A stretch of DNA of 64,000 nucleotides, from positions 377 through 64,376 of the forward strand of contig JAZKXR010000003.1 of the NCBI GenBank assembly GCA_045611705.1, written 5' to 3'. Every line of letters starts with the position of its first letter. Positions within the stretch are counted from its first letter, which is position 1. The notes beneath the pieces were generated by a model that had not been told where the DNA came from, did not search any database, and worked only from the letters and a program-made list of their open reading frames with translations. The translations under genes were made by a program, and so were the position numbers. Positions 5,841 through 64,000 of the stretch are shown here, one piece after another. The stretch comes from Alphaproteobacteria bacterium (lineage in GTDB: Bacteria; Pseudomonadota; Alphaproteobacteria; CAAHEQ01; UBA3637).

Positions 5841-5842
5841 TT

Positions 5843-8618: not shown

Positions 8619-8620
8619 TA

Positions 8621-24240: not shown

Positions 24241-24255
24241 GTTATCCTTTCACAA

Positions 24256-25449: not shown

Positions 25450-25558
25450 ACAGTCCTCCTTGTCCAAATTGGGCTTAATAATTCTACACAAAATTACCCA
25501 TATATGTCAAGAAAAAGTGTCCAATATCACCAAAAATATAACAGTGAAGAAATCGTAT

Positions 25559-26666: not shown

Positions 26667-26947
26667 GGACTAATCCTTATAATGAATAGTGATCGTCTAT
26701 AACTATATTACACAATCATTTGATTATGAAATGCGGTACTTTAGGGCAAACTCAAATCCCGATATATATTCCCATAAATTGCGACATATTGCTGAGTTTT
26801 CAATATCTTTAAAGGGATTAAAGCCATATTTGTGGGTTATTTTATTTTTCAAAAAAAACATTTGCATTTTATCAAATGATTAATTGCTAATACTTTTTGC
26901 AACGAAAAATCCTTTAGGTTCAATAAATAAAATAAAAAGGATTGATT

Positions 26948-29155: not shown

Positions 29156-29476
29156 GTCAATTTCTTTCGTTTTAGTTGCTATTTTTATTGATTACTAATA
29201 TATGGGTATGACCTAATCGAAAGTCAACCTCCAAAGCACTCCCTCGCCAAAAGGCGGCTGAGGTTATTTTATTTTAGGATATGATGGCTTTTGGCTGTTA
29301 TGGGTATTACTTTGTTATCAACTCCCTAAAGGGTTCTATTTTACTTAAAAAGGAAGGAATCTATTGTCATATTTTGGTCTATAATAGATTCTTTTTTATT
29401 TCTATTATAATTCTATTATAGCAACAAAAAACGCCCAGATAGCCCTTGATATTATTGATGTTTCTTAAAATGCACC

Positions 29477-29618
29477 GAACATAACAGTCTCCGCAAGTGA
29501 ACATAACGGTCTTCGGTACTGAACATAACGGTTATCGCCCCCGAACATAACGGTCTTCAAAATCACAAAATGCGAACATAACAGTCTCCACCCCCTAAAA
29601 AAGCGAACATAACGGTCT
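29477..29618 (+). repeat. Six iteron-like direct repeats (putative replication origin)
   Basis: GAACATAACRGTYW at 29477, 29499, 29521, 29543, 29574, 29605 (spacings 22, 22, 22, 31, 31); AT-rich tract to the left; Rep-like gene ~80 bp downstream. Confidence 0.85.
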
Positions 29619-29699
29619 CCGCAAAGATTTTTTTGTTCAAATGAGTATTCGGATGGTCAAACGAATAAATACCTCTGTAAAACAATTTAAGGAGGCAAT

Positions 29700-30242
29700 A
29701 TGAGCAAAAGTAAATCAGATTTATCCATCACCAAACGAGTCCTGTTGGACTTTATTAAATACAAGACCCAAAATGGGCATCAGTTCTTTGCCAGTAATGA
29801 TTATGTGGCAAAAGGTTTGGATTTGACAGAGAATACCGCTAAAACCTTTGTGAATGATTTAATCCGTGATGGCTATCTTTATAAAGAGATAGATAAACAA
29901 GGAAGACGCATCTTGTCCCTGACTGGTAAAGAATATCGCCCCTTGTTTGAGGATATGCGGAACATTGACAAGAAGGTGTTAAAGGAAGACAGGGATAATT
30001 TTGAACGGGAAAATAAGTACCTGAATGAACAACTTTCCATGGAAAATGCACATGTTGAGCAACTTACCAATCAAAATACAGAGTTGGTTTTGTCCAATGC
30101 GGAACTAACAGCTCGTGTTCAAAAGTTAGAGAATGAACTTGCAGGGCTTAAAAAGCGTGTATCCAGTTTGGAAAATATCTTTTATCAAAATGGAATGTCA
30201 CCAAATCAGTTGGAAGAGTTAATCCAGAAATCCAATCAATAA
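29700..30242 (+). CDS. Winged-HTH replication initiator-like protein with coiled-coil tail
   Basis: FFASNDYVAKGLDLTENTAKTFVNDLIRDGYL; AGGAGG RBS. Confidence 0.7.
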   Translation: MSKSKSDLSITKRVLLDFIKYKTQNGHQFFASNDYVAKGLDLTENTAKTFVNDLIRDGYLYKEIDKQGRRILSLTGKEYRPLFEDMRNIDKKVLKEDRDNFERENKYLNEQLSMENAHVEQLTNQNTELVLSNAELTARVQKLENELAGLKKRVSSLENIFYQNGMSPNQLEELIQKSNQ

Positions 30243-49079: not shown

Positions 49080-52000
49080 ATGAAACCAAAGTTTATACAT
49101 TTGCATGTGCATACGGCCTATTCGTTATTGGAAGGGGCTATTAAAATGCCAAAATTGGCCAAGTGGGCGGCGGATAATAAAATGCCCGCCGTTGCTATGA
49201 CTGATTCGGGCAATATTTGTGGTGCGATGGCCATGATGCATGAAATGCCCCCCTTGGGGATTCAGCCCATTTTGGGAACGCAGTTATTGGTTAAATCCCC
49301 TAAACAAAATGTGAACGCTTTGGATACATCGGACGATACTTTTGATAAAGTTGTTTTGTTGGTACAAAATGAAACAGGCTATCGTCATTTATTAAAGCTG
49401 TTTTCCTTTTATTATATGGGGGCTGATAAACAAGGACAACCGCATATTACTTTTGATGAACTTTGCACACATACGGATGGTTTGATTTGTTTAACGGGCG
49501 GATGGGAAGGCCTGGTTGGTCGGCCTTTGTTGACGGGTAAATATGAACACGCCAAACAAATTGCCCAAAAAATGCAAACTGCCTTTGGCGACAGGTTGTA
49601 TATTGAATTGATGCGTCACGGTATGGATCAGGAACAACAAACCGAAGAAGGCTTTTTACAGTTGGCTTTGGATTTAAACATCCCGATTGTGGCCACCAAT
49701 GATGCCTATTTTTTAACCCCTGATATGTATGAAGCACAAGACGCATTGATGTGTATTGCCGAAAAGAAAGTTTTAACGGATGAAGACAGGCGTCGTTTGA
49801 CCCCGGAACATTATTTGAAAACAGAAGATCAAATGTGTGAATTGTTTTCGGATTTGCCCGAGGCTTTGGCCAATTCTGTTTTGATTGCACGCCGATGTGC
49901 CTTTATGGCCGAAAAGAAAAAACCGGCTTTCCCGAATTTTGATTGTAAAGGAAAAACAGAAGATGAAGTTTTGGCCGATATGGCCGAAGAAGGTTTTAAA
50001 ATCCGTATGCAGGGCAGATCGCCCGAAGAACAACAAAAATATCACGATCAAATGTTGTTTGAATTGGGCGTGATTAAACAAATGGGTTTCCCCGGTTACT
50101 TTTTAATTGTGGCCGATTTTATCCAATGGTCCAAAAACAACGGTGTGCCGGTGGGGCCGGGTCGTGGTTCTGGGGCAGGTTCCGTTGTGGCATGGTGTTT
50201 GATGATTACCGATATTGATCCAATGCGGTTTGATTTGGTGTTTGAACGATTTTTGAATCCCGAACGTGTGAATATGCCTGATATAGACGTGGATTTTTGT
50301 CAGGAACGGCGTGAAAAAACTATTGAATATGTGCAAAATCATTATGGTTTTGATCATGTGGCACAAATCATTACTTTTGGTAAATTACAGGCAAAAGCCG
50401 TGATTCGTGATGTGGGCCGTGTGATGCAGGTACCTTTCCCCGTGGTGGACAGATTATCCAAGATGATTCCCAATGACCCTAAAATCACTTTGGAAAAGGC
50501 TTTTGAACAAGAACCCCGATTAAAAGAAGAAATAGAAGCCGAAGAACAAATCAAAGAATTGTTTGCCATTGCCGTTAAATTGGAAGGTTTATTCCGTAAT
50601 ACATCCACCCATGCGGCGGGTGTGGTGATTGGCAACAAACCTTTGGATGAAATTGTGCCGATTTATAAAGATCCGTCATCGGATATGCCGGTTACTCAAT
50701 TTGATATGAAGTATGTGGAAGAAGCCAGCTTGATTAAGTTTGACTTTTTGGGACTGAAAACTTTAACCACCATCAAAAAAACATTAGAGCTTTTACAAAA
50801 ACGTGGGATTGAAGTAGATATTGATCATATCCCATTGGATGATGCTGAAACTTTTAAATTGTTGCGTGCGGCCGATACGACAGGGGTGTTCCAGTTGGAA
50901 TCAACGGGGATGAAAAAGATTCTGCACGACATGCAACCCGATAAAATTGAAGATATTGTGGCGTTGGTGTCTCTTTATCGCCCGGGGCCCATGGATTCTA
51001 TTCCCACCTATATTGCGGTGAAAAAAGGTTTGGAAGAACCCGATTATATGCATCCGATGTTGGAACCGATTTTAAAAGAAACCTATGGTATTATGATTTA
51101 TCAGGAACAGGTGATGCAAATTTCGCGTGATATGGCGGGCTTTTCGTTGGGTGGTGCCGACTTATTACGTCGTATTATGGGTAAGAAAAAACCCGAATTA
51201 TTACCGCCTGAACGTGTGAAGTTTATTGACGGGGCCAAAGTCAAAGGTATCAGTCAGGAAGTGGCCGAAAAGGTCTTTGATAAAATGGCCAAGTTTGCAT
51301 CCTATGGTTTTAACAAGGCACATGCGGCCGCCTATGCCTTTATTGCATATCAAACGGCCTATTTAAAGGCACACTTTCCGGCCGAATTTATGGCGGCTAC
51401 GATGACATTGGATAAAATCAATACGGATAAATTGGCGATATTTAAAGAGGATGTCTTATCTCATAAAATTGAAGTTTTGCAACCCGATATCAATTTGTCC
51501 GAGGTCAACTTTACCGTTCAAGACGGCAAAGTCCGTTATGCATTGTCTGCGGTTAAAAATGTGGGCGAAGCTGGTATGATGGCGGTGGTGGCTGAACGTG
51601 AAAAAAATGGTCCATTTAAATCCATTCAAGATTTTGCATCCCGTGTGGATGTATCGGCATTGAATAAAAGATATGTTGAAAATTTGGCCAAATCAGGGGC
51701 GTTTGAATGTATTGAAAAAAATCGGGCGATGGTCTTTAATAATGTGGAAAATATTGTTTCTTATGCCGCTCAGGCCACTCAGGGACGCAACAGTGCCCAA
51801 ATGGGATTATTTGGTGCGGATGCTTCGGCCAATGCATTAAAATTGACACGCTATCCCGAATGGCCACAAATGGAAAAGTTGGAACATGAAAAAGAAGCGC
51901 TGGGTTTTTATTTGTCGGCCCATCCTTTGGATTCATACGGTGTTGTTTTGGAACGTTTGCGTGCGGTTGATTATGCCGATATTGCCCCCATGGTTTCGGC

Positions 52001-52496
52001 CAGTCCGGCTGTGCGTACATACTTGGCGGTTATTGTATCGGATGTGCGAGAACGTATCAGCCAAAAGGGCAACCGATTTGCCTTTATATCGGCCAGTGAT
52101 AAATCCGGCAGTTTTGATTTAATGTGTTTTTCGGATGTGTTGGAAGCTCATCGTGATAAATTAAAATCAGGTCAACCGTTATTATTGACCATCTCTGCCA
52201 CTAAACGTGAAGGTGAAGACCAAATCCGTATCAATATTCAGGATGTGGCATACTTGGCTGATGCCATGGCCAAAACACAAACGACATTGATTGTGGCTTT
52301 GGAAAATGTTCAGGCGATTGAGGAAATCAAGAATCGTTTGGCAAAAGTTCCCGTCGGACGCAGTAAGATTTTTTTGATTTTAAAAACCAAAGAATATAAC
52401 GTGGAATTTGAATTACCTAACCGCTATACTTTGACTCCCGATGTGTTGGATGATTTATCCCAAATTTTGGGAGTTGCTGAGATCAAACAGGCTTAG
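49080..52496 (+). CDS. dnaE: DNA polymerase III alpha subunit
   Basis: HLHVHTAYSLLEGA (PHP), GPGRGSGAGS, PDIDVDF, KFDFLGL, YGFNKAHA. Confidence 0.97.
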   Translation: MKPKFIHLHVHTAYSLLEGAIKMPKLAKWAADNKMPAVAMTDSGNICGAMAMMHEMPPLGIQPILGTQLLVKSPKQNVNALDTSDDTFDKVVLLVQNETGYRHLLKLFSFYYMGADKQGQPHITFDELCTHTDGLICLTGGWEGLVGRPLLTGKYEHAKQIAQKMQTAFGDRLYIELMRHGMDQEQQTEEGFLQLALDLNIPIVATNDAYFLTPDMYEAQDALMCIAEKKVLTDEDRRRLTPEHYLKTEDQMCELFSDLPEALANSVLIARRCAFMAEKKKPAFPNFDCKGKTEDEVLADMAEEGFKIRMQGRSPEEQQKYHDQMLFELGVIKQMGFPGYFLIVADFIQWSKNNGVPVGPGRGSGAGSVVAWCLMITDIDPMRFDLVFERFLNPERVNMPDIDVDFCQERREKTIEYVQNHYGFDHVAQIITFGKLQAKAVIRDVGRVMQVPFPVVDRLSKMIPNDPKITLEKAFEQEPRLKEEIEAEEQIKELFAIAVKLEGLFRNTSTHAAGVVIGNKPLDEIVPIYKDPSSDMPVTQFDMKYVEEASLIKFDFLGLKTLTTIKKTLELLQKRGIEVDIDHIPLDDAETFKLLRAADTTGVFQLESTGMKKILHDMQPDKIEDIVALVSLYRPGPMDSIPTYIAVKKGLEEPDYMHPMLEPILKETYGIMIYQEQVMQISRDMAGFSLGGADLLRRIMGKKKPELLPPERVKFIDGAKVKGISQEVAEKVFDKMAKFASYGFNKAHAAAYAFIAYQTAYLKAHFPAEFMAATMTLDKINTDKLAIFKEDVLSHKIEVLQPDINLSEVNFTVQDGKVRYALSAVKNVGEAGMMAVVAEREKNGPFKSIQDFASRVDVSALNKRYVENLAKSGAFECIEKNRAMVFNNVENIVSYAAQATQGRNSAQMGLFGADASANALKLTRYPEWPQMEKLEHEKEALGFYLSAHPLDSYGVVLERLRAVDYADIAPMVSASPAVRTYLAVIVSDVRERISQKGNRFAFISASDKSGSFDLMCFSDVLEAHRDKLKSGQPLLLTISATKREGEDQIRINIQDVAYLADAMAKTQTTLIVALENVQAIEEIKNRLAKVPVGRSKIFLILKTKEYNVEFELPNRYTLTPDVLDDLSQILGVAEIKQA

Positions 52497-52558
52497 AATT
52501 TTTATTGACATTTTAAGAAAGTATTTAAACTCTCTGAGATAAGAAAAAGGAGGGAGTA

Positions 52559-53638
52559 GTGAAAAAATTACTTTTATCAATCAGCGCTTTTACTTTGATG
52601 GGATATGCCAATTCTTTATACGGTATGTATGAAAGTGATTGTTTGGAAACGTTATGTCAATGGGGATGCAAAGAAACGTTGCAAGAAGATGGAAAATTAG
52701 TTGGAAAATGTTGTTCTGAACCCACACAAACCAATTGTATTGCCGAACAAAAAGAAGAATTCGGTTGTGTAACGGCTAAAAAAATTGAATGTTCATTGAG
52801 TGAGTTTTGTGCATCGGATGGTTCTTGTAAACCATGCTCTACGGCGGATGATCGTGCCAAACGTTTGAATAAAAATTCAACCCATTGTGAATGTCCGGCC
52901 GGATTGGCCAGACGTTGTAATTCAAAAAGTACAAATGCAAATTGTCAAGATGGGGGTAATTGGGTTTGTACAAATGGATGCTTTGACCATACGGATTGTC
53001 CGGCCGAAGAACAATGTTCATGTGTGGGAAATACATGTCCTGCCAAAGGTGGAACATGTGGTCCTTGTCCAGAAGGAACACATCGGGCCGAAACATCGGC
53101 CACGGTATGTATGGCTTGCACAGGCTGTCAAATATGGGATATGGCAACCCAAACATGCTTAAATCAAAGTCCAAGAGGACAATTTTGTGGACAAAATACA
53201 GGCGGAGCAGCCCCCAATTGCGGCGGGGATGTCACTATGCCGATACCGCCCAAAAGTGAGTTGATTGAAAAACGCGGAACATTGAATAATCGTAAATATT
53301 ACATACCGCCAGCCGAAGATAAGTATAAAATGACACATGCCAGTGCTTCACGTTTTTGTGAATATTACGGTATGCATTTGGGAACGGTTGATGAAGTGTG
53401 TATGAAAGATTACGCCTATGATACAGGCTATGATTGTCCAAATTTTGTCAATACACAAGGCTTTTCATGGCTTGGTCAATGGTTTGATTTATCATGGTGG
53501 CATGTGGATGGCATGGGATCTTTTTGGTTGGCAAATTTGGGAAGTGGTGATACGGCTTTGCGTGTAACATATTCTTGTGGTAATAACCATTCCAGCCATG
53601 TGTGTAATCGTTTTTATCCGTTATGTACGGAAAATTAA
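52559..53638 (+). CDS. Secreted Cys-rich protein with a C-terminal lectin-like domain
   Basis: GTG start, signal peptide, dense Cys; MTHASASRFC..FWL..PLC. Confidence 0.7.
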   Translation: MKKLLLSISAFTLMGYANSLYGMYESDCLETLCQWGCKETLQEDGKLVGKCCSEPTQTNCIAEQKEEFGCVTAKKIECSLSEFCASDGSCKPCSTADDRAKRLNKNSTHCECPAGLARRCNSKSTNANCQDGGNWVCTNGCFDHTDCPAEEQCSCVGNTCPAKGGTCGPCPEGTHRAETSATVCMACTGCQIWDMATQTCLNQSPRGQFCGQNTGGAAPNCGGDVTMPIPPKSELIEKRGTLNNRKYYIPPAEDKYKMTHASASRFCEYYGMHLGTVDEVCMKDYAYDTGYDCPNFVNTQGFSWLGQWFDLSWWHVDGMGSFWLANLGSGDTALRVTYSCGNNHSSHVCNRFYPLCTEN

Positions 53639-53652
53639 ATAAGGAGGAGAAA

Positions 53653-54180
53653 ATGAAAAAAATATTTTTAACAACAACAATGTGTTTGTTTGCATTGCCT
53701 TTGATGGCCATGGATTGTGTTTATTCACCGGAACAGGAAATTGTCCGTTCGGCCGAAAATTATGCCGAAATTGAAAAATTGGGTGAAAACTTTGATGCCA
53801 ATGCAACATATCCATGTGGTGGAACATTATCTCAGTTGGCTGTTTTGCGTGGTAATTTGGATTCTTTATATTACCTGTATCAACATGGCGCCAATTTTAA
53901 TGCGGATGTATCATTAAATGGATACGAAATTCCCGGTGCACCGGATGTGATTCCGTTCCCATTGTTTGTGGCACGTTATTCACCCAATTCGCAAATTGTG
54001 GATACAATGTTAAATTCGGGTATTGATTTTAAGGCAAAAGACAGCATGGGGCATGATGTTTTTTGGTATTTTGAACAAAACCCTGTTTTACGTAATACTT
54101 ATTTAAATAAAAAAGGATGGGATTCGTTGATTCCTGTTTCTGAACGTTTGGAACGGGTCAAACAAGGGATTCCTTACTAA
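53653..54180 (+). CDS. Secreted ankyrin-like protein
   Basis: Signal peptide; YQHGANFNA, SGIDFKAKDSMGHD. Confidence 0.65.
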   Translation: MKKIFLTTTMCLFALPLMAMDCVYSPEQEIVRSAENYAEIEKLGENFDANATYPCGGTLSQLAVLRGNLDSLYYLYQHGANFNADVSLNGYEIPGAPDVIPFPLFVARYSPNSQIVDTMLNSGIDFKAKDSMGHDVFWYFEQNPVLRNTYLNKKGWDSLIPVSERLERVKQGIPY

Positions 54181-54187
54181 AAATATC

Positions 54188-54213
54188 CTCCCCCTTGGAA
54201 AAGGGGGATTTTT
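54188..54213 (+). terminator. Intrinsic terminator
   Basis: TCCCCCTT-loop-AAGGGGGA-TTTTT. Confidence 0.7.
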
Positions 54214-54267
54214 CTTGCCAAAAAGGGCTTTTTGTGGTATAATATCCGTCAAAGAAAGGATTTTAAA

Positions 54268-54651
54268 ATGAAAAAGCCCCCTTCACAACGTCAATTGCGT
54301 GTGGCCGAAGAAATTAAAAAATTATTGGCCAAAACGTTGATTGAAAATAATTTGTTTATCCAAGGGTTAAAGGCCCCTTATTTGATGATAACCGAAGTTC
54401 AAATTGCACCCGATTTCGGTTATACGGATATTTATATGCGTGCCATGCCACCGGTGAATACAGATGAACAGGTTGCATTATTGAATGAACATAAAGGGGC
54501 CTTTCGTAAAAAGATTGGGCAAAATGTCCGTTTGCGTATAACCCCTGAGGTGCGCTTTTTTTCCGATACACGTTTTGAACAAGATGCACATATTGAATCC
54601 ATCTTGAACAGCCCGCGTGTGAAAGCCGATCTTGACAAATACAAAGAATAA
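54268..54651 (+). CDS. rbfA: Ribosome-binding factor A
   Basis: RQLRVAEEIKK..ITEV..LRITPEVRF..D; precedes truB. Confidence 0.9.
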   Translation: MKKPPSQRQLRVAEEIKKLLAKTLIENNLFIQGLKAPYLMITEVQIAPDFGYTDIYMRAMPPVNTDEQVALLNEHKGAFRKKIGQNVRLRITPEVRFFSDTRFEQDAHIESILNSPRVKADLDKYKE

Positions 54652-55510
54652 CATAAACGGTTGGTTGGTTATTAATAAACCGTATGATATGGGATCCACT
54701 CCTGTTGTGGGACGGTTAAAGTATTTATTAAAGCCGTTTAAAATCGGTCATGCTGGAACTTTGGATCCGTTGGCAACTGGTGTTTTGCCGATTGCATTGG
54801 GTAAAGCCACACGCTTGATCCCCTTTGTAATGGATGGTAAAAAAACATATGAATTCACCGTTCGTTGGGGTGTTCAAACGGATTCGGATGATTTGGCTGG
54901 ACAGGAAATTGCCCGCAATGATATACGCCCGACACAGGAACAAATTTTATCGGTGTTGCCGAAATTTATCGGAACAATTATGCAAAGGCCCAGTATTTAT
55001 TCAGCCTTAAAAATCAATGGACAAAGGGCCTATGATTTGGCGCGCAGTGGTCAAGATGTTCAAATTCAACCAAGACCCACAAAAATCTATGATTTAAGGT
55101 TGTTAGATCATGATGGAGAAACATCGTCCTTTGTGGCCGAAGTAGGCAAGGGGACATATATTCGTACCTTGGCACACGATATAGCCGAATCTGTGGGTGC
55201 CTTGGGTGTTGTCATTCGCTTACATCGCACAAAAGACGGTCCCTTTGATATCAATCAGGCTGTTACTTTGGATGATAATGTGGAAAAAAATATCCAGCCC
55301 ATGGAAAATGTTTTGGGAAATTTATCAAAACTGAATGTATCATCGGATGTGGCCAAACGTTTGATTTATGGTCAAAGAATAAAAGATGAAGCCTATGCCG
55401 ACTTATCGGGTGTTTACGCTGTTATGTGTGAAAATAACTTGATTGCGTTGGGTGAAGTTGAAAAAAATGTTTTGCATCCGCGGTCAATTTTTGCATCAAA
55501 AGAGGATTAA
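54632..55510 (+). CDS. truB: tRNA pseudouridine(55) synthase
   Basis: KIGHAGTLDPLATGVL, YSALKINGQRAYDLAR, KGTYIRTLA. Confidence 0.95.
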   Translation: MTNTKNNINGWLVINKPYDMGSTPVVGRLKYLLKPFKIGHAGTLDPLATGVLPIALGKATRLIPFVMDGKKTYEFTVRWGVQTDSDDLAGQEIARNDIRPTQEQILSVLPKFIGTIMQRPSIYSALKINGQRAYDLARSGQDVQIQPRPTKIYDLRLLDHDGETSSFVAEVGKGTYIRTLAHDIAESVGALGVVIRLHRTKDGPFDINQAVTLDDNVEKNIQPMENVLGNLSKLNVSSDVAKRLIYGQRIKDEAYADLSGVYAVMCENNLIALGEVEKNVLHPRSIFASKED

Positions 55511-55575
55511 AAAAAGATACCGATTTGCAATTTATGTTAAAATATGCTAGTGTTTCAAAAAAAGGAGAATTAAAA

Positions 55576-58500
55576 ATGGGTAAAATATTTAATAAACGCT
55601 TTATGCCTTTGCTTTCATCACACTTTTTATCGTCAATCAATGACGCCTTTATGCGTACATTGTTTTTATTTTATGCAACTTATCAATTGACCCGTGAAAG
55701 TACAATCTTTATCATCACGGGTGTTATTTTTTACGCATTGACCTTTTGTGTGGGCAGTACGATTGCCGGTCAGGTGGCCGATAAAATTTCCAAAAAGAAG
55801 TTTTTGATTTTCTTCCGTTTAATTGAAATTGGGGCATTGTTATTGACCTTGGGTGGTGTTTCGCTCAGTTCCCGTTGGGTTTTGTTGTTGATTATGGGTG
55901 GTTTAGGTTTTATCAGCGCCTGTTTGCGTGTGGCTGATTATTCCTTAATGCCGGCCTTGGTGGCACAACGTGATTTGGTCAAAGCCAATGCTTTAATTAA
56001 AATTGCCTCTTTAATTGGTTTGGGGTTGTCTGCATTGATGATGATGCTGATTTACAAATACAACGTATTACCTGCTTTTGTTTGTTTGGGTGCTGTTGCT
56101 TTATCGGTTATCAGCTTGGGTTTGACCTACTTAATGCCTGAACAAAAATCAGTGGATCCCGAAACGGAAGTTGTTAAAAATCCCATTCATGTATTTGATT
56201 ATGTCGGTAAGACTTTGAAATATAAATTTGATGATTGGGCTTACTTGATCGGTATTGCTTGGTTTTGGGTGTTGATGAGCTTGGTGGGTATGCTATCGGG
56301 TGAATACGGTCAAAACATATTACAGGCCCGTTGGTCAGTGATGGCCTTTTTATCCGGTGCAATATTCCCGTTGGGTTATATTATCGGTTCAATCATTTGT
56401 GTGCGTTCCAGCCGTAAACGTTTAGGATCTCAGGCTGTTTGGGTTGGAGCTTTGATTTCTGTGGTGTTGTTGGACTTTGTTTTTGCCGCCGGTGCTTTGT
56501 CACAAATTGAAGTTACCAAAGCCATTACGATTTCCCGCTTGTTGACAGGTAGTTTTTTGTATTGGCACGTTTTGTTAAATGTTTTTGCTTTGGGATTATT
56601 GTCGGCCCTTTATGTGATTCCGTTTTATGCCCAATTACAAATGCATACCGAAGAACGTATTATGGGACGTATGTTTTCGCTCAGCGGATTATTAAACGCT
56701 TTGACGATGGGTTGTGCCTTTTTAATCGTAATGGGTATGCGTATTTTATCATTTGATTTATCGGCCGTGATGGTTGTGTTTGCGATATTGAATCTGTTGG
56801 TATCGCTTTATTTTGTGCGTTTGTTGCCGATTGAACAACGTCGTCGCTTTTTCAAAAAAGTTTTGGGTCGTTTGTTCCGTGTTAAAGTCTATGGTTTGGA
56901 AAGAATGCCCAAGGCGGGTGAACCTTGCTTGATTGTTTGCAATCATACCAGTTATATGGATGTTTTGTTGATTTCAACATTTATTGACAGACCGATTGTG
57001 TTTTCCATCAATAATCGTTTATTGGAAAAAACAATTGTGAAATTTATGACGAATTTAGTGGATTTAAGGGCTTTGGATCCGACCAGCCCCTTTGCCGTTA
57101 AAACAATGGTCAATGAATTAAAGCAAAATAAAACCTGTATGATTTTTAACGGTGGTTTGTTGGAAGGTGGAAATACACGTTTGAAAATTTACGAAGGTTC
57201 GGCAATGATGGCATTAAAAGGTAACGCCCCGATTGTCCCTATTCGTATTGATGGTGCCGCCCATACCTTTGGTTCACGTGTGTTGGGTAAAAAAACATGG
57301 TTTAAGGCTTTCCCGCAAATTACAATTACGGTGATGCCACCGGTTGAATTTAAATATCCCGAAACAATGCCTACCCGTGAACAACGTATGCGTTCTTCGG
57401 GCAAATTGTATGACGTGATTTCCAATATGGTTTTTGAAAGCTATGAAAAAGACAGAACGATTTTTCAGGCTGTGGCTGATGCTATGAAAATGCGTGGTCA
57501 TATGTTCCGCGTCTTGGATGATACGGCACGTCGTCCCCAAACATATGCCAGCGTATTTTTAAAATCGTTTGTCTTGGGTGCTTTGATTAATAAACATTTG
57601 CCTGATGATGAACGTGTGGGTATTATGATACCGACATCTTCGGCCTGTGTTTATACTTTCTTGGGATTACAGGCCTATGGTAAAGTGCCGGCAATGATCA
57701 ACTTTACCGCAGGTGCTCAGGCGGTGGTCAGCACTTGCCAAACGGTTGGCTTAAAGCATATTGTTACGGCCCGCAAAGTGGTTCAGTTGGCCAAATTGGA
57801 AAATTTGGTGGCTGAGTTAGAGAAAAACGACGTTAAGGTAATGTTCTTGGAAGATATGAAAGCCGCCTTGACATTATCCGATAAATTGCGTGGTATCTAT
57901 GGTGCTTTGTTCCCCAAACGCTTGTATAAAAAAACAAGTGGTGGTAAAGTTTCATCCAAAGATACGGGGGTTATTTTGTTCACATCCGGTTCGGAAGGTT
58001 TGCCTAAGGCCGTTTTATTAAGTCATTATAACCTGTTATCCAACTGTTATCAGGTGCCATGCCGTTTTGATTTGTATCAAAATGATGTGTTCTTGAACTG
58101 TTTGCCGTTGTTCCATTCCTTTGGTTTGGGGGCAGGGACAATTTTGCCGATGATTTTGGGTGTTAAAACATTCTTGTATCCGACACCGCTTCATTATCGT
58201 ATTATTCCCGAAATAGCGGCCAGCATTCGTGCCACGGTTTTCTTTGCAACAGATACGTTCTTGTCATCCTATGCCAAATGTGCCAATCCGTATGATTTTA
58301 ACAGCTTGCGTGTGGTGGCCGGTGGTGCCGAAAAAATCCGTGAAGAAACCCGCAAAGTGTGGCAGGAAAAATTCGGTGTGCGTTTGTTTGAAGGCTATGG
58401 TGCCACCGAATGTTCTCCCTTTATTTCGGTGAACACTTTCTTGTTCCAGAAAAAAGATTCCGTGGGTCGTTTGTTGCCCGGTATTGAATCCCGCCTGAAA

Positions 58501-58998
58501 AAAATTGAAGGTATTGCCGAAGGTGGTGAATTATACGTCAAAGGCCCCAATATTATGCAAGGCTATATGCGTCATACAAATCCTGGTGTATTGGAACCGC
58601 CAAAGGATGGATGGTATGATACTGGTGATATTGTTGAAATTGATGATGACGGATTTATCACCATCAAAGGCCGTTGCAAACGCTTTGCCAAAATTGGCGG
58701 TGAAATGGTGTCTTTATTGGCCGTTGAACAAACAATCGCCAAAAAATGGCCGGATGCTTTATCGGGTGCCGTGAATTTACCTGATGAAAGAAAGGGTGAA
58801 AAAATTATCCTGATTACCAATGAAAAGCAAATTACCAAAGAGGCTTTGATTTCCTTGTTTAAAGAAAAGGGAATGACCGAGTTGGGATTGCCGGCCGTGA
58901 TTGTTCATACGGAAAATCCGCCCATTTTGGGAACAGGCAAGTTTGATTATCAAACGGCCAAGAATATGGCGATTGAGGCCTGTAAGCCCAAAGCATAA
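55576..58998 (+). CDS. aas: MFS transporter/acyltransferase/acyl-ACP synthetase fusion (Aas)
   Basis: N-terminal multi-TM region, NHTSYMD (PlsC), FTSGSEGLPK, EGYGATE, YDTGD..GRCKRFAKIGGE. Confidence 0.9.
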   Translation: MGKIFNKRFMPLLSSHFLSSINDAFMRTLFLFYATYQLTRESTIFIITGVIFYALTFCVGSTIAGQVADKISKKKFLIFFRLIEIGALLLTLGGVSLSSRWVLLLIMGGLGFISACLRVADYSLMPALVAQRDLVKANALIKIASLIGLGLSALMMMLIYKYNVLPAFVCLGAVALSVISLGLTYLMPEQKSVDPETEVVKNPIHVFDYVGKTLKYKFDDWAYLIGIAWFWVLMSLVGMLSGEYGQNILQARWSVMAFLSGAIFPLGYIIGSIICVRSSRKRLGSQAVWVGALISVVLLDFVFAAGALSQIEVTKAITISRLLTGSFLYWHVLLNVFALGLLSALYVIPFYAQLQMHTEERIMGRMFSLSGLLNALTMGCAFLIVMGMRILSFDLSAVMVVFAILNLLVSLYFVRLLPIEQRRRFFKKVLGRLFRVKVYGLERMPKAGEPCLIVCNHTSYMDVLLISTFIDRPIVFSINNRLLEKTIVKFMTNLVDLRALDPTSPFAVKTMVNELKQNKTCMIFNGGLLEGGNTRLKIYEGSAMMALKGNAPIVPIRIDGAAHTFGSRVLGKKTWFKAFPQITITVMPPVEFKYPETMPTREQRMRSSGKLYDVISNMVFESYEKDRTIFQAVADAMKMRGHMFRVLDDTARRPQTYASVFLKSFVLGALINKHLPDDERVGIMIPTSSACVYTFLGLQAYGKVPAMINFTAGAQAVVSTCQTVGLKHIVTARKVVQLAKLENLVAELEKNDVKVMFLEDMKAALTLSDKLRGIYGALFPKRLYKKTSGGKVSSKDTGVILFTSGSEGLPKAVLLSHYNLLSNCYQVPCRFDLYQNDVFLNCLPLFHSFGLGAGTILPMILGVKTFLYPTPLHYRIIPEIAASIRATVFFATDTFLSSYAKCANPYDFNSLRVVAGGAEKIREETRKVWQEKFGVRLFEGYGATECSPFISVNTFLFQKKDSVGRLLPGIESRLKKIEGIAEGGELYVKGPNIMQGYMRHTNPGVLEPPKDGWYDTGDIVEIDDDGFITIKGRCKRFAKIGGEMVSLLAVEQTIAKKWPDALSGAVNLPDERKGEKIILITNEKQITKEALISLFKEKGMTELGLPAVIVHTENPPILGTGKFDYQTAKNMAIEACKPKA

Positions 58999-59002
58999 AA
59001 TT

Positions 59003-59029
59003 AAAGCCCGAGTTATTCTCGGGTTTTTT
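59003..59029 (+). terminator. Intrinsic terminator
   Basis: AAAGCCCGAG-loop-CTCGGGTTTTTT. Confidence 0.7.
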
Positions 59030-59115
59030 AAAAAAAATAACTTGCATTTTATTGTATTCTTTTTTATGATGAAAAAGACGAAGGAATTGTCCTTCAAAAA
59101 ATGAAAGGAAAAACA

Positions 59116-59448
59116 ATGTTTAATCATTATGCTAATTGTATTAAAAAATATGTTCAATTTTCGGGCTGTTCAACACGTTCGGAATTTTGGTGGTTTGTGC
59201 TGGCCAACTTTATCATTGCTTTATTGGTAAATGTCGTTGCGGGTATTATCAATGTGCCGGCGTTGGCGTTGTTGTATTCATTATTTGTGTTTTTGCCAAA
59301 TTTATCTGTATCAGTTCGTCGTTTGCATGACGCGGGTTTTTCGGCCTGGTTTATGTTGTTGGCCTTAATTCCGTTAGTCGGTGGTATTGCTTTGTTGGTA
59401 ATGGCATGTTTGCCCACTAAAACACAAGATAATAAATACATGGGATAA
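59116..59448 (+). CDS. DUF805 membrane protein
   Basis: KYVQFSGCSTRSEFWWF..VSVRRLHDAG.S.W. Confidence 0.88.
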   Translation: MFNHYANCIKKYVQFSGCSTRSEFWWFVLANFIIALLVNVVAGIINVPALALLYSLFVFLPNLSVSVRRLHDAGFSAWFMLLALIPLVGGIALLVMACLPTKTQDNKYMG

Positions 59449-59468
59449 TCATTGAAAGGCAGGCAGAT

Positions 59469-60380
59469 ATGAAAGGTTTACATATTTTAGATTTTTTAAA
59501 GTCACCATTTCGTCAGCAGTTCTTATTTGTCTGTCTTTTATTATTACCGGCACTTTTATTGTGTCCGCTGTTTGTTTCGTTTTTTGGGCTTTTACACACA
59601 CATATGGATTTTATTCAATCGGCTGATGAAAAAGCGTTGATTGAATTGGTTAAAAATTGGATGCTTTCACAAAGTGCTTCAACTTATATTTTGGCAAATA
59701 TCGGATTTTTCGGGGCTTCTTTGTTGCTTTATGGATATCTTATAATTTTTGCAAATGCTTCATTGTCTCAAAAAGTTGATTTATATACTTTTAAGCCTGT
59801 TTCTTTATCGGTAAAACAGTTTTTTAAAGGTCTTACCAAAGCAATCAGTTTTTCATTTTGGTCTTTTTCTTATATAGTTTTGGTTTTAGTTTTGACTGTT
59901 TTGCTTATTTCTTTAACGGTTTTTTTAAGTGAATTATTGCCAACATTTTTATCTGTCATTTTATGGATTGTTTGCGTGGTTGGTTGTTTGGCTGTTTTCT
60001 TATGGTTTATTTTGAATTATTGTGTTGCTAATTTACGCTTTTATATGACCCTTAAAACACGATCAGTTTTTGAATGGTTTGAAAATTATCGTTTTGTAAA
60101 ACAATATAAATCACGTTTTTTCATTGCTTTATTACTTTGTTTTGTGTTTAGTCAGGCTGTTTCCGTTGTAATGCAAATACTTTTTTCATGGATATTTGAT
60201 TTGACTTTGTTTATTGAGGGATTTAGTTCCGGTCTTGGAATTGGCCAAACTTTTGTTCCGTCGCTTTTAATGATACTGTGTGGTATGGTGATTTTTTCAT
60301 ACCTATCGTTGTTGCAAATATCCTTTAATTGTAAAACGTTGGTTTGGTTAAAGCAAAAGCCAAAAACAAAAAAGAAATAA
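59469..60380 (+). CDS. Polytopic membrane protein
   Basis: Six or more hydrophobic segments. Confidence 0.7.
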   Translation: MKGLHILDFLKSPFRQQFLFVCLLLLPALLLCPLFVSFFGLLHTHMDFIQSADEKALIELVKNWMLSQSASTYILANIGFFGASLLLYGYLIIFANASLSQKVDLYTFKPVSLSVKQFFKGLTKAISFSFWSFSYIVLVLVLTVLLISLTVFLSELLPTFLSVILWIVCVVGCLAVFLWFILNYCVANLRFYMTLKTRSVFEWFENYRFVKQYKSRFFIALLLCFVFSQAVSVVMQILFSWIFDLTLFIEGFSSGLGIGQTFVPSLLMILCGMVIFSYLSLLQISFNCKTLVWLKQKPKTKKK

Positions 60381-60860
60381 TTATTTATTATAGTGTGCCA
60401 TGATGCGTTGTTTATCGCGTTGCCAATCACGTTGTTTGATGGTTTCACGTTTATCGGCATAGGTTTTACCTTGGGCTAAGGCGATTTTCATTTTGGCAAT
60501 CCCACGGGCATTAAAGTATAAATCCAAAGGAATGATGGTGCGTCCTTTTTGATTGACTTCACGCAACAGTTTGGATAATTCTTTTTGATGCAACAATAAT
60601 TTTCTGGGGCGTGTCGCCTGTTCCGTCACAAAGCCTTTATTGGCTGGAGAGTATTCTTCAATCCGTGCGTTGACCAAAACCAGCTCGCCATTTTCAGGTG
60701 ATACATAGCTTTCCCCGATACTGGCATGTCCCATACGCAAAGATTTGACTTCTCCGCCTGTTAAAATAAGTCCAGCCTCATAGGTATCCAAAATCATATA
60801 ATGAAAGTGGGCTTTGCGATTTGTGGCCACAGGGCCGGTTGAAATTAAATTATTACTCAT
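60381..60860 (-). CDS. smpB: SsrA-binding protein
   Basis: NRKAHFHY..EAGLILTGGEVKSLR..RPRKLLLH..GKTYADKRETIK. Confidence 0.95.
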   Translation of the reverse strand: MSNNLISTGPVATNRKAHFHYMILDTYEAGLILTGGEVKSLRMGHASIGESYVSPENGELVLVNARIEEYSPANKGFVTEQATRPRKLLLHQKELSKLLREVNQKGRTIIPLDLYFNARGIAKMKIALAQGKTYADKRETIKQRDWQRDKQRIMAHYNK

Positions 60861-60899
60861 GTTGTGGATTTTAACACCTTTTATTAAAAAAGTCAATGA

Positions 60900-60928
60900 A
60901 AAAGCCCCCCTGAATTCAGAGGGGCTTT
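60900..60928 (-). terminator. Terminator downstream of rpsT
   Basis: AAAAGCCCCCCTGAATTCAGAGGGGCTTT hairpin with A/T runs. Confidence 0.65.
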
Positions 60929-60948
60929 GAAATCATTTGCTCACAAGC

Positions 60949-61221
60949 TTATTTTTTGATGATTAAAGCTTTTAAGGCTTGGGCCAAACGAGAAATTTGG
61001 CGGGCCATTGTATTGGCTTTAATTGTACGCTTGTTTTTGGCTTTTGCCAAAGAAGATTCCGCTTTACGGAAAGCCTTTGTGGCTGTTTCTTTGTCGCCTT
61101 TAGCAATAGCGGCACGTGTTTGTTTAACGGCAGTACGTGTTGCATTCAAGCGGTTAGCATTGATTGTTTCACGTTTTTTGTTGCGTTTAACACGTGTTTT
61201 AGCTGATTTTAAGTTTGCCAT
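60949..61221 (-). CDS. rpsT: 30S ribosomal protein S20
   Basis: MANLKSAKTR..N..R..N..R..SRL. Confidence 0.93.
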   Translation of the reverse strand: MANLKSAKTRVKRNKKRETINANRLNATRTAVKQTRAAIAKGDKETATKAFRKAESSLAKAKNKRTIKANTMARQISRLAQALKALIIKK

Positions 61222-61387
61222 TTGTATGCCTCTCTAAAAGTAAAGTTAAATAACGTTTTTCATTATATCCGATTTATTCAAAAAAGTCAAGGGGTTTTAT
61301 CTTTAAGTTGTTTATGTGTCTCAATTCTTGACATTTGTGTGGCTTTTTGGTATACTTTAAAAAATATTTTTTAAAAAGGAGAAAGCT

Positions 61388-63157
61388 ATGTCAATAACCT
61401 ATCGTGAACTGCGTCAAAAATGGTTGGAATTTTTTAAATCAAAAGGGCATGCCGAAATTCCATCGGCTTCTGTGTTTCCCGAAAATGATGCCACAGTGTT
61501 GTTCACGACCGCCGGTATGCATCCGTTGGTTCCGTATTTGATGGGGCAAAAGCATCCGGCCGGCAACCGTTTGACGGATATTCAAAAATGTATCCGCACG
61601 AATGATATTGATGCCGTTGGCGATACCAGCCATTTGACCTTTTTTGAAATGATGGGCAACTGGTCTTTGGGCGATTATTTCAAAAAGGAAATGGTGGCTT
61701 GGAGCTTTGAGTTTTTGACCCAGCATTTGGGGTTCAAGCCTGAACAATTGGCGGTTACCTGTTTTAAAGGTGATGAAAACGCCCCGCGTGATGAAGAAAC
61801 AGCTAGGTTTTGGAAAGAGCAGGGATTAAAAGATAATCAGATTTTCTTTTATGGTGCGGATGATAACTGGTGGGGTTTGGCCGATGGCGGTCCATGTGGT
61901 CCGGATACGGAAATGTTTATTGATAACGGTCAACCGGCATGCGGTCCGGATTGTGGTCCGGCCTGTCATTGTGGTAAATACACTGAAATTTGGAACGATG
62001 TGTTTATGCAATATGAAAAAAAATCCGATGGTTCTTTGGTGAAGTTGGCCCAACAAAACGTGGATACAGGTATGGGATTGGAACGCACCTTGGCTTTCAT
62101 GAATGGTGCCAGTGATGTTTTTTCCACAGAATTGTTTGCGGGTCTGCGTCAAAAGTTGGAACAATTGTCTGGCAAAAAATATGCCGAAGCATTGGCGCCT
62201 TTCCGTAAAGTATTGGACCATGTGCGTGCATCTGTTTTTATTTTGGGTGATGACAAGCATTTGGCACCGTCCAACACGGACCAAGGCTATGTTTTGCGTC
62301 GTTTGATTCGTGTGGCAATTCGTTCGTTAAAGCAATTGGGGATTACGGATTTTGTATTGCCGGCTTTGGCCGAATGTGTTTTGGATCAATACGCTGAATA
62401 TTATCCTGAATTGCAACGTAACCGTGATTTCATTATGACCGAATTGATCAAAGAAGAACAATTGTTTAACCGCACGATTACGGCCGGCTTAAAGGAAATG
62501 GACAAAGTCATGGGACGTGTTCAAAACGGATTGATTGACGGCCAAACAGCATTCCATTTGTACGATACCTATGGTTTTCCGTTGGAATTCACACAACAAA
62601 TTGCCACCGAAAACAACTTACAGGTGGATGTGGACGGCTTTAATAAGTGTTTTCAGGCACATCAGGAACTTTCCCGCAAAGGTGCCGAACAAAAATTCAA
62701 GGGCGGTTTGGCCGACCATTCGGAAAAATCGGCCCACTATCACACCGCCACACATATTATGCACGCCATGTTGCGTCAAATGTTTGGTGAAACGGTGGCA
62801 CAAAAGGGCAGTAATATCACGCCTGAACGGATGCGTTTTGACTTTTCCTTTAATCGCAAGATGACACCTGAAGAAGTCAAAGAATTGGAAAATCGTGTGA
62901 ATGCGGTGATTGAACAAAAAATCCCTGTTGAATGTGCCGAACGGACTTTGGCCGAAGCCCAAGCCGAAGGTGCAATTGGCTTGTTTGCCCACAAATATGA
63001 TGCCGAAAAGGTTAAGGTTTATACCATTGGTTCGGTTTCCAAAGAAGTTTGTGGTGGTCCGCACGCCCAAAATACAGGCGATTTAGGTCACTTCCGTATT
63101 TTAAAGGAAGAATCTTCATCGGCCGGTGTTCGTCGTATCAAGGCTGTTTTGGAATAA
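61388..63157 (+). CDS. alaS: Alanyl-tRNA synthetase, compact form without the C-Ala domain
   Basis: LFTTAGMHPL, HLTFFEMMGNWS, VDTGMGLER, LYDTYGFP, HTATH, CGGPH, GVRRI then stop; 589 aa. Confidence 0.95.
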   Translation: MSITYRELRQKWLEFFKSKGHAEIPSASVFPENDATVLFTTAGMHPLVPYLMGQKHPAGNRLTDIQKCIRTNDIDAVGDTSHLTFFEMMGNWSLGDYFKKEMVAWSFEFLTQHLGFKPEQLAVTCFKGDENAPRDEETARFWKEQGLKDNQIFFYGADDNWWGLADGGPCGPDTEMFIDNGQPACGPDCGPACHCGKYTEIWNDVFMQYEKKSDGSLVKLAQQNVDTGMGLERTLAFMNGASDVFSTELFAGLRQKLEQLSGKKYAEALAPFRKVLDHVRASVFILGDDKHLAPSNTDQGYVLRRLIRVAIRSLKQLGITDFVLPALAECVLDQYAEYYPELQRNRDFIMTELIKEEQLFNRTITAGLKEMDKVMGRVQNGLIDGQTAFHLYDTYGFPLEFTQQIATENNLQVDVDGFNKCFQAHQELSRKGAEQKFKGGLADHSEKSAHYHTATHIMHAMLRQMFGETVAQKGSNITPERMRFDFSFNRKMTPEEVKELENRVNAVIEQKIPVECAERTLAEAQAEGAIGLFAHKYDAEKVKVYTIGSVSKEVCGGPHAQNTGDLGHFRILKEESSSAGVRRIKAVLE

Positions 63158-63189
63158 AATCTTGCCTGTCGGGTGTTTCCCACAACATT

Positions 63190-64000
63190 GTCATGCCCGA
63201 CTTGATCGGGCATCCATAAACAATGATACAAAATGCGGACTTATGTCCGCTGGATGCCCGATCAGGTCGGGCATGACAGTGTGGGTGGATATTCCACCTT
63301 TCTTTTTTTTGTCATATTTGTGCGTTCATTTCGCATTGTCATATTTGTGTGTTTTTTCTCTGTCATCTTCGTGCTTGACACGAAGATCTATGCACCCTCT
63401 CTGTCATCTTCGTGCTTGACACGAAGATCCATAAATAATATAATTCCAATTATGAAACAAATGTACGTCTATATTATGGCCAGCGGTTTTAACGGCACTC
63501 TTTATGTGGGTGTAACATCTGATTTGATTAAACGAGTCTGGCAACATAAAAATCATGTTGTGCCAGGTTTTACGGATAAATATAACATAGATAAGCTGGT
63601 TTATTATGAACTTTGGCAAGATGAATTAGGAGCAATTCAGCGTGAAAAGCAAATAAAACATTGGCACAGGCAATGGAAAAAGGATTTAATAGAAAAAGAA
63701 AATCCTGAGTGGTTGGATTTGTATAATACATTATTGGGTTAGTGGATCTTCGGATCAAGTCCGAAGATGACAGAGAGAGCATTGTCATGCCCTACCTGTC
63801 GGGTGTCCAACCTAGCATTGTCATGCCCGACCCGATCGGGCGTCCAACCTACCACTGTCATGCCCGACTTGATCGGGCATCCAACCTACCACTGTCATGC
63901 CCGACTTGATCGGGCATCCATAAAGAATTAAATGCCATGGATCTTCGGATCAAGTCCGAAGATGACAGGAAAGAGTATTGTCATGCCCTGCCTGTTGGGT
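63190..64000. repeat. Family of REP-like hairpin repeats (GTC-AT-stem-CTTGA-stem-AT-CCA)
   Basis: Copies at 63190(+), 63251(-), 63362(+), 63403(+), 63743(-), 63784(+, degenerate), 63820(+), 63857(+), 63894(+), 63938(-), 63980(+, truncated by the window edge). Confidence 0.9.
63452..63742 (+). CDS. Stand-alone GIY-YIG nuclease
   Basis: YVYIMAS..TLYVGVTSDLIKRVWQH..LVYYE..AIQREKQIKHW.R.WK..LIE..NP.W.DL. Confidence 0.92.
   Translation: MKQMYVYIMASGFNGTLYVGVTSDLIKRVWQHKNHVVPGFTDKYNIDKLVYYELWQDELGAIQREKQIKHWHRQWKKDLIEKENPEWLDLYNTLLG

Follow-up and report, generated by a model that had tools for sequence, protein, structure and literature searches.

A predicted Ssn-family GIY-YIG nuclease gene among GTC-tagged hairpin repeats downstream of alaS in an uncultured alphaproteobacterium

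Introduction

The 64,000-nucleotide stretch of DNA analysed here (the window; positions 377 to 64,376 of the forward strand of contig JAZKXR010000003.1, assembly GCA_045611705.1) comes from an uncultured alphaproteobacterium. Its last 840 bases (63161–64000), which follow the stop codon of the alanyl-tRNA synthetase (AlaRS) gene alaS, consist almost wholly of hairpin repeat units and one small gene, here called ssn, for a 96-residue GIY-YIG nuclease.

Repeats of this kind were catalogued in 2013 as the CGTC/TGTC superfamily of tagged repetitive extragenic palindromes (REPs), with families CGTC-1 to -4, which takes in dRS3 of Neisseria and RPE-4/-6 of Rickettsia (PMC3733652). According to that catalogue, CGTC-tagged REPs carry the tag CGTC, often TGTC, 8- or 9-bp stems that start ‘almost invariably’ from AT, loops of 4 or 5 nt and the tail CCA; they are most frequent among Alphaproteobacteria, occur as dimers, often heterodimers, with several families per genome, and ‘apparently lack a dedicated transposase’, having no association with REP-associated tyrosine transposases (RAYTs), while many tagged REPs were argued to be transcribed and to act as RNA elements (PMC3733652).

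The enzyme family was published in 2025 (PMC11893778). SsnA of Neisseria, a 94-aa single-domain GIY-YIG protein, binds and cuts the repeat NTS (CGTCATTCCCGCGMAVGCGGGAATCYRG, with dRS3 as its core) as single-stranded DNA (ssDNA) only, and four Ssn homologs each cleave beside their own repeat in vitro, the cut site lying a few nucleotides 5' of the repeat and RNA not being bound (PMC11893778). The GTC upstream of the palindrome is most important for cutting and the C just past it for binding, an altered palindrome with the hairpin kept abolished activity in Neisseria, and deletion of ssnA in N. meningitidis led to approximately 5-fold more transformation by NTS-bearing DNA (PMC11893778). Across bacteria, at least one recognition repeat (SRM) accompanied 71% of Ssn homologs and SRMs on both sides 42%; the authors, who initially considered regulation, noted an architecture like that of an insertion sequence (IS) and put forward mobility as a hypothesis (PMC11893778). 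The main text of that paper makes no mention of the CGTC-REP catalogue, and our search for later literature on the mobility of Ssn/SRM modules found none.

Results

Hairpin units and the gene among them

A structure-based scan and two frame patterns (GTCAT-N6/7-CTTGA-N6/7-ATCCA with at most one mismatch, expectations being taken from shuffles) resolved the block into 10 intact and about five degenerate hairpin units (Table 1), the two patterns giving 4 + 4 matches against 0.00 and 0.01 expected. All 10 intact units share the anatomy TGTC / AT-stem / 5-nt loop / stem-AT / CCA (CTA in one unit), folding as ssDNA at -8.4 to -9.0 kcal/mol (z -3.9 to -6.4), and three stem types (A, B and C) are mixed within the one array. 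A preliminary description of this DNA, made from its letters, had reported units of the form GTC-AT-stem-CTTGA-stem-AT-CCA in three stem variants with maintained pairing, and both observations hold, pairing also being maintained between positional orthologs (below). The invariant loop of that description was slightly overstated, as CTTGA is the loop of eight units and CCTGA and CCCGA are found at 63251–63277 and 63820–63846. The inverted doublets listed there (63190/63251, 63403/63743 and 63894/63938) were all recovered, as were the 36–37-bp tandem run (63783–63920; period 37, 3.8 copies, 91% matches in TRF) and the lone 96-aa GIY-YIG gene.

The core cassette reads B-hairpin (+), putative promoter, ssn, C-hairpin (-), with the GTC tags of both hairpins facing outward, as in most relatives. 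The homotypic A doublet upstream of it (63190/63251) is able to pair into a long hairpin of 31 bp (-41.4 kcal/mol, z -11.6), and such A doublets are a recurring composite element in three loci with close homologs of the gene (L001, L002 and L003), consisting of an invariant A unit, a mini-hairpin spacer and an inverted partner whose stem varies by genome; the A-type unit of 63189–63216 is found identical in L001. Downstream, A(63894) and C(63966) make up a heterotypic doublet; 17 nt separate the two units, and the pair resembles the cassette minus its gene. The combination of C(-) with A' recurs with a 195-bp period, so that the array probably continues past position 64000, and direct repeat D1 relates 63165–63216 to 63795–63846 at 81%.

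The array also yields spurious open reading frames (63742–63909 and 63767–63931) with the repetitive peptides VMPDLIGHP and CHARLDRAS; repeats like these give rise to ‘hypothetical proteins’ of this sort in automated annotation. The cumulative GC skew of the window has its minimum at ~24000–30000, where a replication origin may be near; if so, the + strand would be the lagging-strand template at ssn, and 8 of the 11 oriented units have GTC...CCA on +.

Table 1. Features of the block at the end of the window and the matching sites in close relatives. Unit coordinates give the extent GTC...CCA; where the T of TGTC is included, the outer position (in brackets) lies one base further out.
Feature	Position	Strand	Basis or remark
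Left junction of block	63158–63161	unstranded	Homology to block-less relatives stops at 63160
3' half of degenerate A' unit (CCTGTCGGGTGT), truncated at junction	63165–63176	+	Direct repeat D1
A-type unit, TGTC/ATGCCCGA/CTTGA/TCGGGCAT/CCA; 8-bp stem, 5-nt loop, CGTC-2-like	63190–63216 (63189)	+	
Mini-hairpin GCGGACTTATGTCCGC in spacer of A doublet	63235–63250	unstranded	Kept in same composite element of L002, L003
A-type unit, inverted partner of 63189–63216, loop CCTGA; REPIN-like doublet	63251–63277 (63278)	-	
Terminator-like hairpin and T tract, GGGTGGATATTCCACC-TTTCTTTTTTTT	63283–63308	+	Consensus match only
Two degenerate 5' half-units, GTCATATTTGTG (TTGTCATATTTGTG...), starts 63311 and 63338, 27 nt apart	63309–63353	+	Direct repeat D7
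Distal B-type unit, TGTC/ATCTTCGTG/CTTGA/CACGAAGAT/CTA; 9-bp stem	63362–63390 (63361)	+	
Proximal B-type unit, stem ATCTTCGTG; 5' cassette end, 49 nt before start codon, holds putative -35	63403–63431 (63402)	+	
Putative sigma-70 promoter, TTGACA-17 nt-TATAAT, 12/12	63416–63444	+	Consensus match
ssn, 96-aa single-domain GIY-YIG nuclease, Ssn family	63452–63742	+	PF01541
C-type unit, TGTC/ATCTTCGGA/CTTGA/TCCGAAGAT/CCA; 9-bp stem, 3' cassette end, directly after stop codon	63743–63771 (63772)	-	Repeats I1, D4
Tandem array of 37-bp units, one degenerate A' and three A-type (63820, 63857, 63894)	63783–63920	+	
Degenerate A' unit, does not fold	63784–63810	+	
A-type unit, one stem mismatch, loop CCCGA	63820–63846	+	
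A-type unit	63857–63883	+	
A-type unit	63894–63920	+	
Second C-type unit, 100% identical to 63743–63773	63938–63966 (63967)	-	Direct repeat D4
A' unit cut by window end	63980–64000 (63979)	+	Direct repeats D2, D4
Empty intergenic sites	L082 11771–11911; L083 11771–11907; L085 3641–3771		Counterpart of window 63161–64000

Membership of the Ssn family

As the published SRM search string fails on the window, membership was tested directly on the protein. It matches PF01541 over residues 4–77 (E 6.5e-13), with no further domain. BLASTP against the N. gonorrhoeae ortholog of SsnA, which served as reference in place of the N. meningitidis protein itself, gave 54% identity over 89 aa, ungapped (E 5e-35), the gonococcal reading frame being taken as the ssnA ortholog on the strength of its 94 aa, its residues Y6/Y17/E64 and its place amid 16 NTS copies in 6.3 kb. 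Residues Y7, Y18 and E65 of the window protein align gap-free with these catalytic residues. A tblastn search with the window protein hit a single place in each of two N. gonorrhoeae chromosomes in PLSDB (E 2e-24), and the protein falls within the limit used for homology in the Ssn paper (E < 1e-10; PMC11893778). The gene is bracketed by oriented units at -49 (+) and +29 (-), with at least 8 more beyond these. By these sequence criteria the window protein, for which a search returned 5204 homologs, belongs to the Ssn family, and its repeats are a stem/loop variant missed by the published string. Through its homology to the Neisseria protein it would be assigned to cd10448 (GIY-YIG_unchar_3). 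The nearest solved structure is 1zg2 (UPF0213; E 0.0097), no Ssn structure having been solved.

Neither the Ssn nor the AlaRS of the window matched any recorded sequence exactly, PADLOC defence families, phage records and IMG/VR contigs held no match for the locus, and Rfam gave nothing on the window apart from tRNAs elsewhere in it.

Association of gene and repeats among relatives

Scanning one genome per species, we collected 80 loci with Ssn relatives at 54–81% identity, which span Alpha-, Beta- and Gammaproteobacteria, Saccharibacteria, Omnitrophota, Planctomycetota, Chloroflexota, Cyanobacteria and others. Over these loci, GTC-tagged hairpins occur at 1.64/kb within 600 bp of the gene and at 0.10/kb in the flanks, a 16-fold enrichment; at least one is present in 57/80 loci, and 36/80 have them on both sides. 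Orientation is shared as well, the nearest upstream unit being ‘+’ in 31 of 42 loci (at about -40 to -60; -49 in the window) and the nearest downstream unit ‘-’ in 35 of 48 (about +27 to +50; +29 in the window). Beside the gene of several relatives at 57–66% identity, the NTS core of Neisseria, GTCATTCCCGCGAAGGCGGGAATCCA, occurs unaltered; the published SRM string matches near the gene in 40/80 relatives and the strict NTS motif in 3/80. The association of this GIY-YIG subfamily with such repeats, which the preliminary description had proposed to test across genomes, holds over 80 relatives, and the proposal in the same description that the enzyme is cognate to the hairpins is supported by this association together with Ssn membership.

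An alignment of 24 units of the 9-bp/CTTGA class from 12 genomes showed GTCA, the loop C.TGA and the TC after the stem to be invariant, these conserved tags and loop not having been part of the selection, while 8 of 9 stem pairs carried double-sided changes. Positional orthologs give a direct comparison. The 5' hairpin reads ATCTTCGTG/CACGAAGAT in the window and ATATTCGTG/CACGAATAT in L001, L086 and L087, and the 3' hairpin ATCTTCGGA/TCCGAAGAT against ATCCTCGGG/CCCGAGGAT in the same three loci, with all differences compensated in both.

These results bear on the classical accounts of such a locus, in which a RAYT mobilises the repeats as REPs and the GIY-YIG gene is a bystander, or the gene is a free-standing or intron-borne GIY-YIG homing endonuclease. 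The anatomy of the units is indeed REP-like, and the protein has weak matches to group I intron endonucleases (TIGR01453, E 0.0053, 16.8 bits where the cut-off is 56; phrog_5123, E 0.0027). However, the gene between the hairpins is of the GIY-YIG and not the HUH type, and CGTC REPs are not associated with RAYTs (PMC3733652). Homing endonucleases of the I-TevI type pair the nuclease with a DNA-binding domain and usually reside in an intron or stand free in phage, whereas the window protein has no DNA-binding extension or other extra domain, Rfam found no intron RNA, and the protein has no phage or viral match. With the gene–repeat association over 80 loci added, we give the classical accounts hardly any credence.

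A putative promoter within the proximal hairpin

The -35 hexamer of the putative promoter is formed by the loop and 3' arm of the proximal B unit, and its -10 ends 7 nt before the ATG of ssn, a distance that implies that an mRNA started from it would be leaderless. Hexamers and geometry are kept in L001 (~9294–9322), L086 (~3657–3685) and L087 despite divergence of the spacer, the -10 lying 7–8 nt from the start; the promoter recurs in the locus L089 as well, and L005 has a 9/12 match. Other loci have a Shine-Dalgarno sequence at this position and no promoter, which makes the overlap a feature of a sub-lineage. Extrusion of the hairpin, or binding of Ssn to it, could couple ssn expression to the state of the DNA.

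The overlap of a perfect consensus promoter with the proximal hairpin raises the question of whether the hairpins are ordinary expression signals (promoter, attenuator, terminator or RNA stabiliser), their proximity to a GIY-YIG gene being regulation only. The 2013 catalogue treated tagged REPs as transcribed RNA elements (PMC3733652), and regulation was what the Ssn authors first considered (PMC11893778). Against this, the unpaired GTC and CCA tags are conserved, orientation is strict and no U-tract follows the units, all of which is unlike terminators; the promoter overlap is limited to the sub-lineage; RNA is not bound by Ssn (PMC11893778); the gene-less tandem arrays and doublets have no regulatory target; and no Rfam family matches. 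An explanation through expression signals is in our judgement very improbable.

Filled and empty sites

The stop codon of alaS occupies 63155–63157, and homology to close relatives ends 3 nt later. By blastn, window 51384–63160 is colinear with L082 and 91.7% identical over 11.8 kb, the two sequences then being unrelated. In L082 and two further close relatives, L083 and L085, whose AlaRS proteins are 97–98% identical to that of the window, alaS is followed by ~140 bp with two terminators and then by a TrbC-like gene, past which lies a type IVb pilus-like cluster (TcpQ/secretin/PilO/T2SSE/T2SSF). No ssn gene or tagged hairpin was found in ~22 kb of the contigs of these three relatives. By parsimony, this suggests that the block was gained in the lineage of the window, where the terminator-like hairpin at 63283–63308 may replace, for alaS, the terminator seen in the relatives. 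The exact alaS/repeat junction had 0 matches in JGI metagenomes, and an AT-rich segment of the relatives' empty site (TTGTCATTTTTGAATTTGATCAAAAT), considered as a decayed target hairpin, was rejected, as it folds like shuffles (z -0.6 and -1.8).

Named AlaRS matches, at ~73%, are from uncultured Alphaproteobacteria. The AlaRS of the window (61388–63157) is a short 589-aa form (NF002436/PRK01584) that lacks the usual C-terminal domain and is of equal length in all close relatives. Between rpsT and alaS, L083 (8882–9828, against window 61222–61387) has two extra genes (236 aa and 77 aa), which are missing from the window and L082 and constitute a second indel polymorphism nearby. At its other end, the window has a GC content of 25–35% over 1–10000, against ~40% later, and an HsdR-like type I restriction subunit (2330–5383, -); this region may be a genomic island.

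Copies and genomic contexts

The closest Ssn homolog (82%) sits downstream of lon, and the loci with the closest homologs (L001–L005) have no synteny with the window. Between the window and L001, L086 and L087, similarity of the cassette extends from the TGTC of the 5' hairpin (63402) exactly as far as the stop codon. Two ssn copies of ~95% nucleotide identity lie in a single Oleiphilaceae chromosome, and two copies are also found in metagenome-assembled genomes (MAGs) of Dyella. The idea that the hairpins are clean element ends was dropped, the similarity of the Oleiphilaceae copies running ~110 bp past both hairpins. A solo B-like hairpin, CGTCATATTCGTGCTTGACACGAATATCCA, occurs in a JGI metagenome contig (L088 2596–2624, -), where it lies in an unrelated intergenic stretch ahead of a 242-aa gene, in ssn-free surroundings.

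Contigs with close Ssn homologs, including L001, L086 and L087, are often shorter than 1 kb or stop no more than ~60 bp from the gene, the pattern expected where assemblies break at multi-copy repeats. Several PLSDB ‘plasmids’ are in fact chromosomes (NZ_CP119140.1, NZ_CP119142.1, NZ_AP026896.1, NZ_CP104135.1 and others), misfiled entries including N. gonorrhoeae (2.17 Mb), Aeromonas caviae (4.9 Mb) and Sinorhizobium (3.5 Mb), which is a pitfall for plasmid statistics.

Filled and empty sites and the varied contexts raise the possibility of an autonomous selfish element, in which the hairpin–ssn–hairpin cassette moves actively, the doublets are passengers comparable to REPINs or miniature inverted-repeat transposable elements (MITEs), and any benefit to the host is secondary. 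The Ssn authors themselves remarked on the IS-like architecture (PMC11893778). Consistent with such an element are the empty site in three close relatives, the different genomic contexts of the closest homologs, the two near-identical copies in one chromosome and the two in Dyella MAGs, a distribution across phyla at 55–80% identity, the frequent breaking of contigs at the cassette, a consensus promoter of its own, and the composite doublets kept across genomes, with the heterotypic 63894/63966 doublet like a gene-less cassette. On the other hand, the enzyme is a 96-aa GIY-YIG nuclease, and to our knowledge no strand-transfer or ligation activity is known for nucleases of this type. Target-site duplications or defined ends were not seen, the right junction of the block lying outside the window; the Oleiphilaceae duplication exceeds both hairpins by ~110 bp; phage and viral collections held no copies; 32 of 33 ‘plasmid’ matches were non-mobilizable large replicons or mislabelled chromosomes; and the other 63 kb of the same genome showed no further copies. 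An autonomous element is a serious possibility, though we lean against it.

Discussion

We consider it highly probable that the locus is an Ssn/SRM module, comprising an Ssn-family nuclease and surrounding hairpins that serve as its recognition repeats, and that it was recently acquired and is probably mobile. By homology with the characterised Neisseria and Wolbachia enzymes, an exposed single strand reading GTC-stem-loop-stem-CCA would fold into a hairpin that monomeric Ssn binds by sequence and shape, the C after the palindrome being critical for binding and the GTC for cutting, and Ssn would then cleave the hairpin strand a few nucleotides 5' of GTC, sparing double-stranded DNA, RNA and the complementary strand. 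The end units both point outward, which places one predicted cut per strand, immediately beyond either end of the cassette. On this reading, the block would be a mobile IS-like unit, and the repeat-only doublets its non-autonomous derivatives. A GIY-YIG domain cannot rejoin DNA, which favours nick-induced recombination or repair over transposase chemistry, and spread would most likely begin with an ssDNA nick directed by the hairpin, which host recombination or repair would then process (homing or gene conversion). The preliminary description had called the system self-propagating; this is unproven, the evidence being circumstantial and favouring mobility or recent acquisition.

The likeness to the published Ssn family (PMC11893778) extends to a single-domain GIY-YIG protein of ~95 aa, which is 54% identical to its gonococcal ortholog and has conserved Y/Y/E, to hairpins that flank the gene on either side, carry GTC as their 5' tag, begin the stem with AT and have a C after the palindrome, and to the clustering of repeats about the gene in the IS-like order repeat–gene–repeat. 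Unlike the Neisseria repeats, the stems of the window are unrelated to the TCCCGCG core and enclose a CTTGA pentaloop in place of a GNAG-type tetraloop; the window further departs from the family in its misses by the SRM string, its three stem types, the putative -35 in the 5' hairpin, the lack of dispersed copies in 63 kb, and its host, an uncultured anaerobic alphaproteobacterium (the window also encodes an anaerobic ribonucleotide reductase). With CGTC/TGTC REPs (PMC3733652) the repeats share tag, stems, loops, CCA tail, an alphaproteobacterial host, heterodimers and mixed families, and, with the lengths of stem and loop as the sole guide, type A (8 bp, 5 nt) corresponds to the format of CGTC-2 and types B and C (9 bp, 5 nt) to that of CGTC-3/4. 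They differ in bracketing a GIY-YIG gene, where the 2013 study saw no dedicated enzyme (PMC3733652). As regards the dispersal expected of CGTC REPs, no units were found in the remaining 63 kb of the window, nor in the ~22 kb of relatives.

The REP/REPIN–RAYT systems reportedly described by Bertels and Rainey in 2011 and Nunvar in 2010 are similar in their tagged, inverted palindrome doublets that fold into long hairpins, in having one nearby gene for an enzyme of ssDNA hairpins, and in their patchy distribution. The analogy drawn with them in the preliminary description is apt as to architecture, given the inverted doublets, the long-hairpin fold and the composite doublets kept between genomes. 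The enzymes and tags differ, RAYT being an HUH/Y1 transposase with the tag GTAG and the window enzyme a hydrolytic GIY-YIG nuclease with the tag GTC. HUH/Y1 transposases form a covalent intermediate and are able to rejoin DNA. The IS200/IS605 elements, whose transposase TnpA is of the Y1 type, are likewise compact, with ends set by hairpins recognised in ssDNA, but TnpA cuts both ends on one strand and rejoins them, whereas the end hairpins of the window are inverted, with one active site for each strand, and its enzyme has no joining chemistry.

Several points weigh against an Ssn/SRM module of recent origin. The published degenerate SRM string, HGTCWYN(0-2)YYVSBRHN(0-5)WNVSBRGN(0-2)RNCYNB, had 0 matches in the window, although it is a search device derived from 29 genomes and not a biochemical definition; the strict NTS motif also had 0. 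Structure scan and pattern searches found 0 hairpin units in the remaining 63 kb of the window. The 99% pairing among the 24 aligned units is circular, since they were picked as hairpins. Co-evolution of enzyme and stem, for which the preliminary description had proposed a test, is visible as a weak effect for loop class (CTTGA or GNNN), pairs of the same class having 62.4% protein identity and pairs of different class 60.2% (reached by 16 of 2000 permutations), and this difference of 2 percentage points is too weak to support a claim. The putative promoter rests on a consensus match, gain as opposed to loss of the block was decided on parsimony only, and the right junction lies beyond position 64000, outside the window. 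Moreover, a change of palindrome abolished activity in Neisseria (PMC11893778), so that one enzyme may not serve A, B and C together; the A-type units may be relics or the repeats of a different Ssn encoded elsewhere.

A domesticated host function as in Neisseria would have Ssn restrict repeat-bearing ssDNA during transformation, conjugation or repair and so shape recombination at repeat-marked loci. The ~5-fold rise in transformation by NTS-bearing DNA on deletion of ssnA in N. meningitidis (PMC11893778) points in this direction, and in the relatives the site adjoins the type IVb pilus-like/TrbC cluster, a neighbourhood of DNA traffic. Yet with one repeat cluster visible there is little to mark, the close relatives manage without the block at this locus, and no known defence family matches, and as the whole explanation we regard a host function as unlikely. 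Mobility and a host-serving restriction of ssDNA are compatible readings.

The Ssn/SRM module may be taken one step further, to a cassette that is an active mobile element with Ssn as its sole protein, spreading by hairpin-directed nicks and host recombination into or beside repeats and seeding gene-less doublets and tandem arrays. We put this forward tentatively and consider it rather doubtful. If it were true, Ssn would be the missing ‘dedicated enzyme’ of the CGTC-tagged REP superfamily, and the window, with its empty-site relatives, an example caught in the act.

Such a system is less obscure than the ‘poorly characterised’ of the preliminary description, as the repeats were catalogued in 2013 (PMC3733652) and the enzyme and its association with repeats published in 2025 (PMC11893778), and in these respects the window is a further example. 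What is new at this locus is a block missing in three close relatives, a putative promoter with its -35 in a hairpin, and the mixture of three stem types. Comparison with the empty site, and the proposed link of Ssn to CGTC REPs as the enzyme they were said to lack, add modestly but usefully to the two publications. The hairpin types of the window escape the published string, and the census of Ssn-associated repeats is probably an underestimate. Filled and empty sites between genomes that are ~92% identical are the type of evidence needed for judging mobility, and a promoter embedded in a hairpin suggests a simple link from DNA secondary structure or Ssn binding to expression of the nuclease. 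Every new pair of enzyme and hairpin is also a candidate reagent for sequence-specific cutting of ssDNA.

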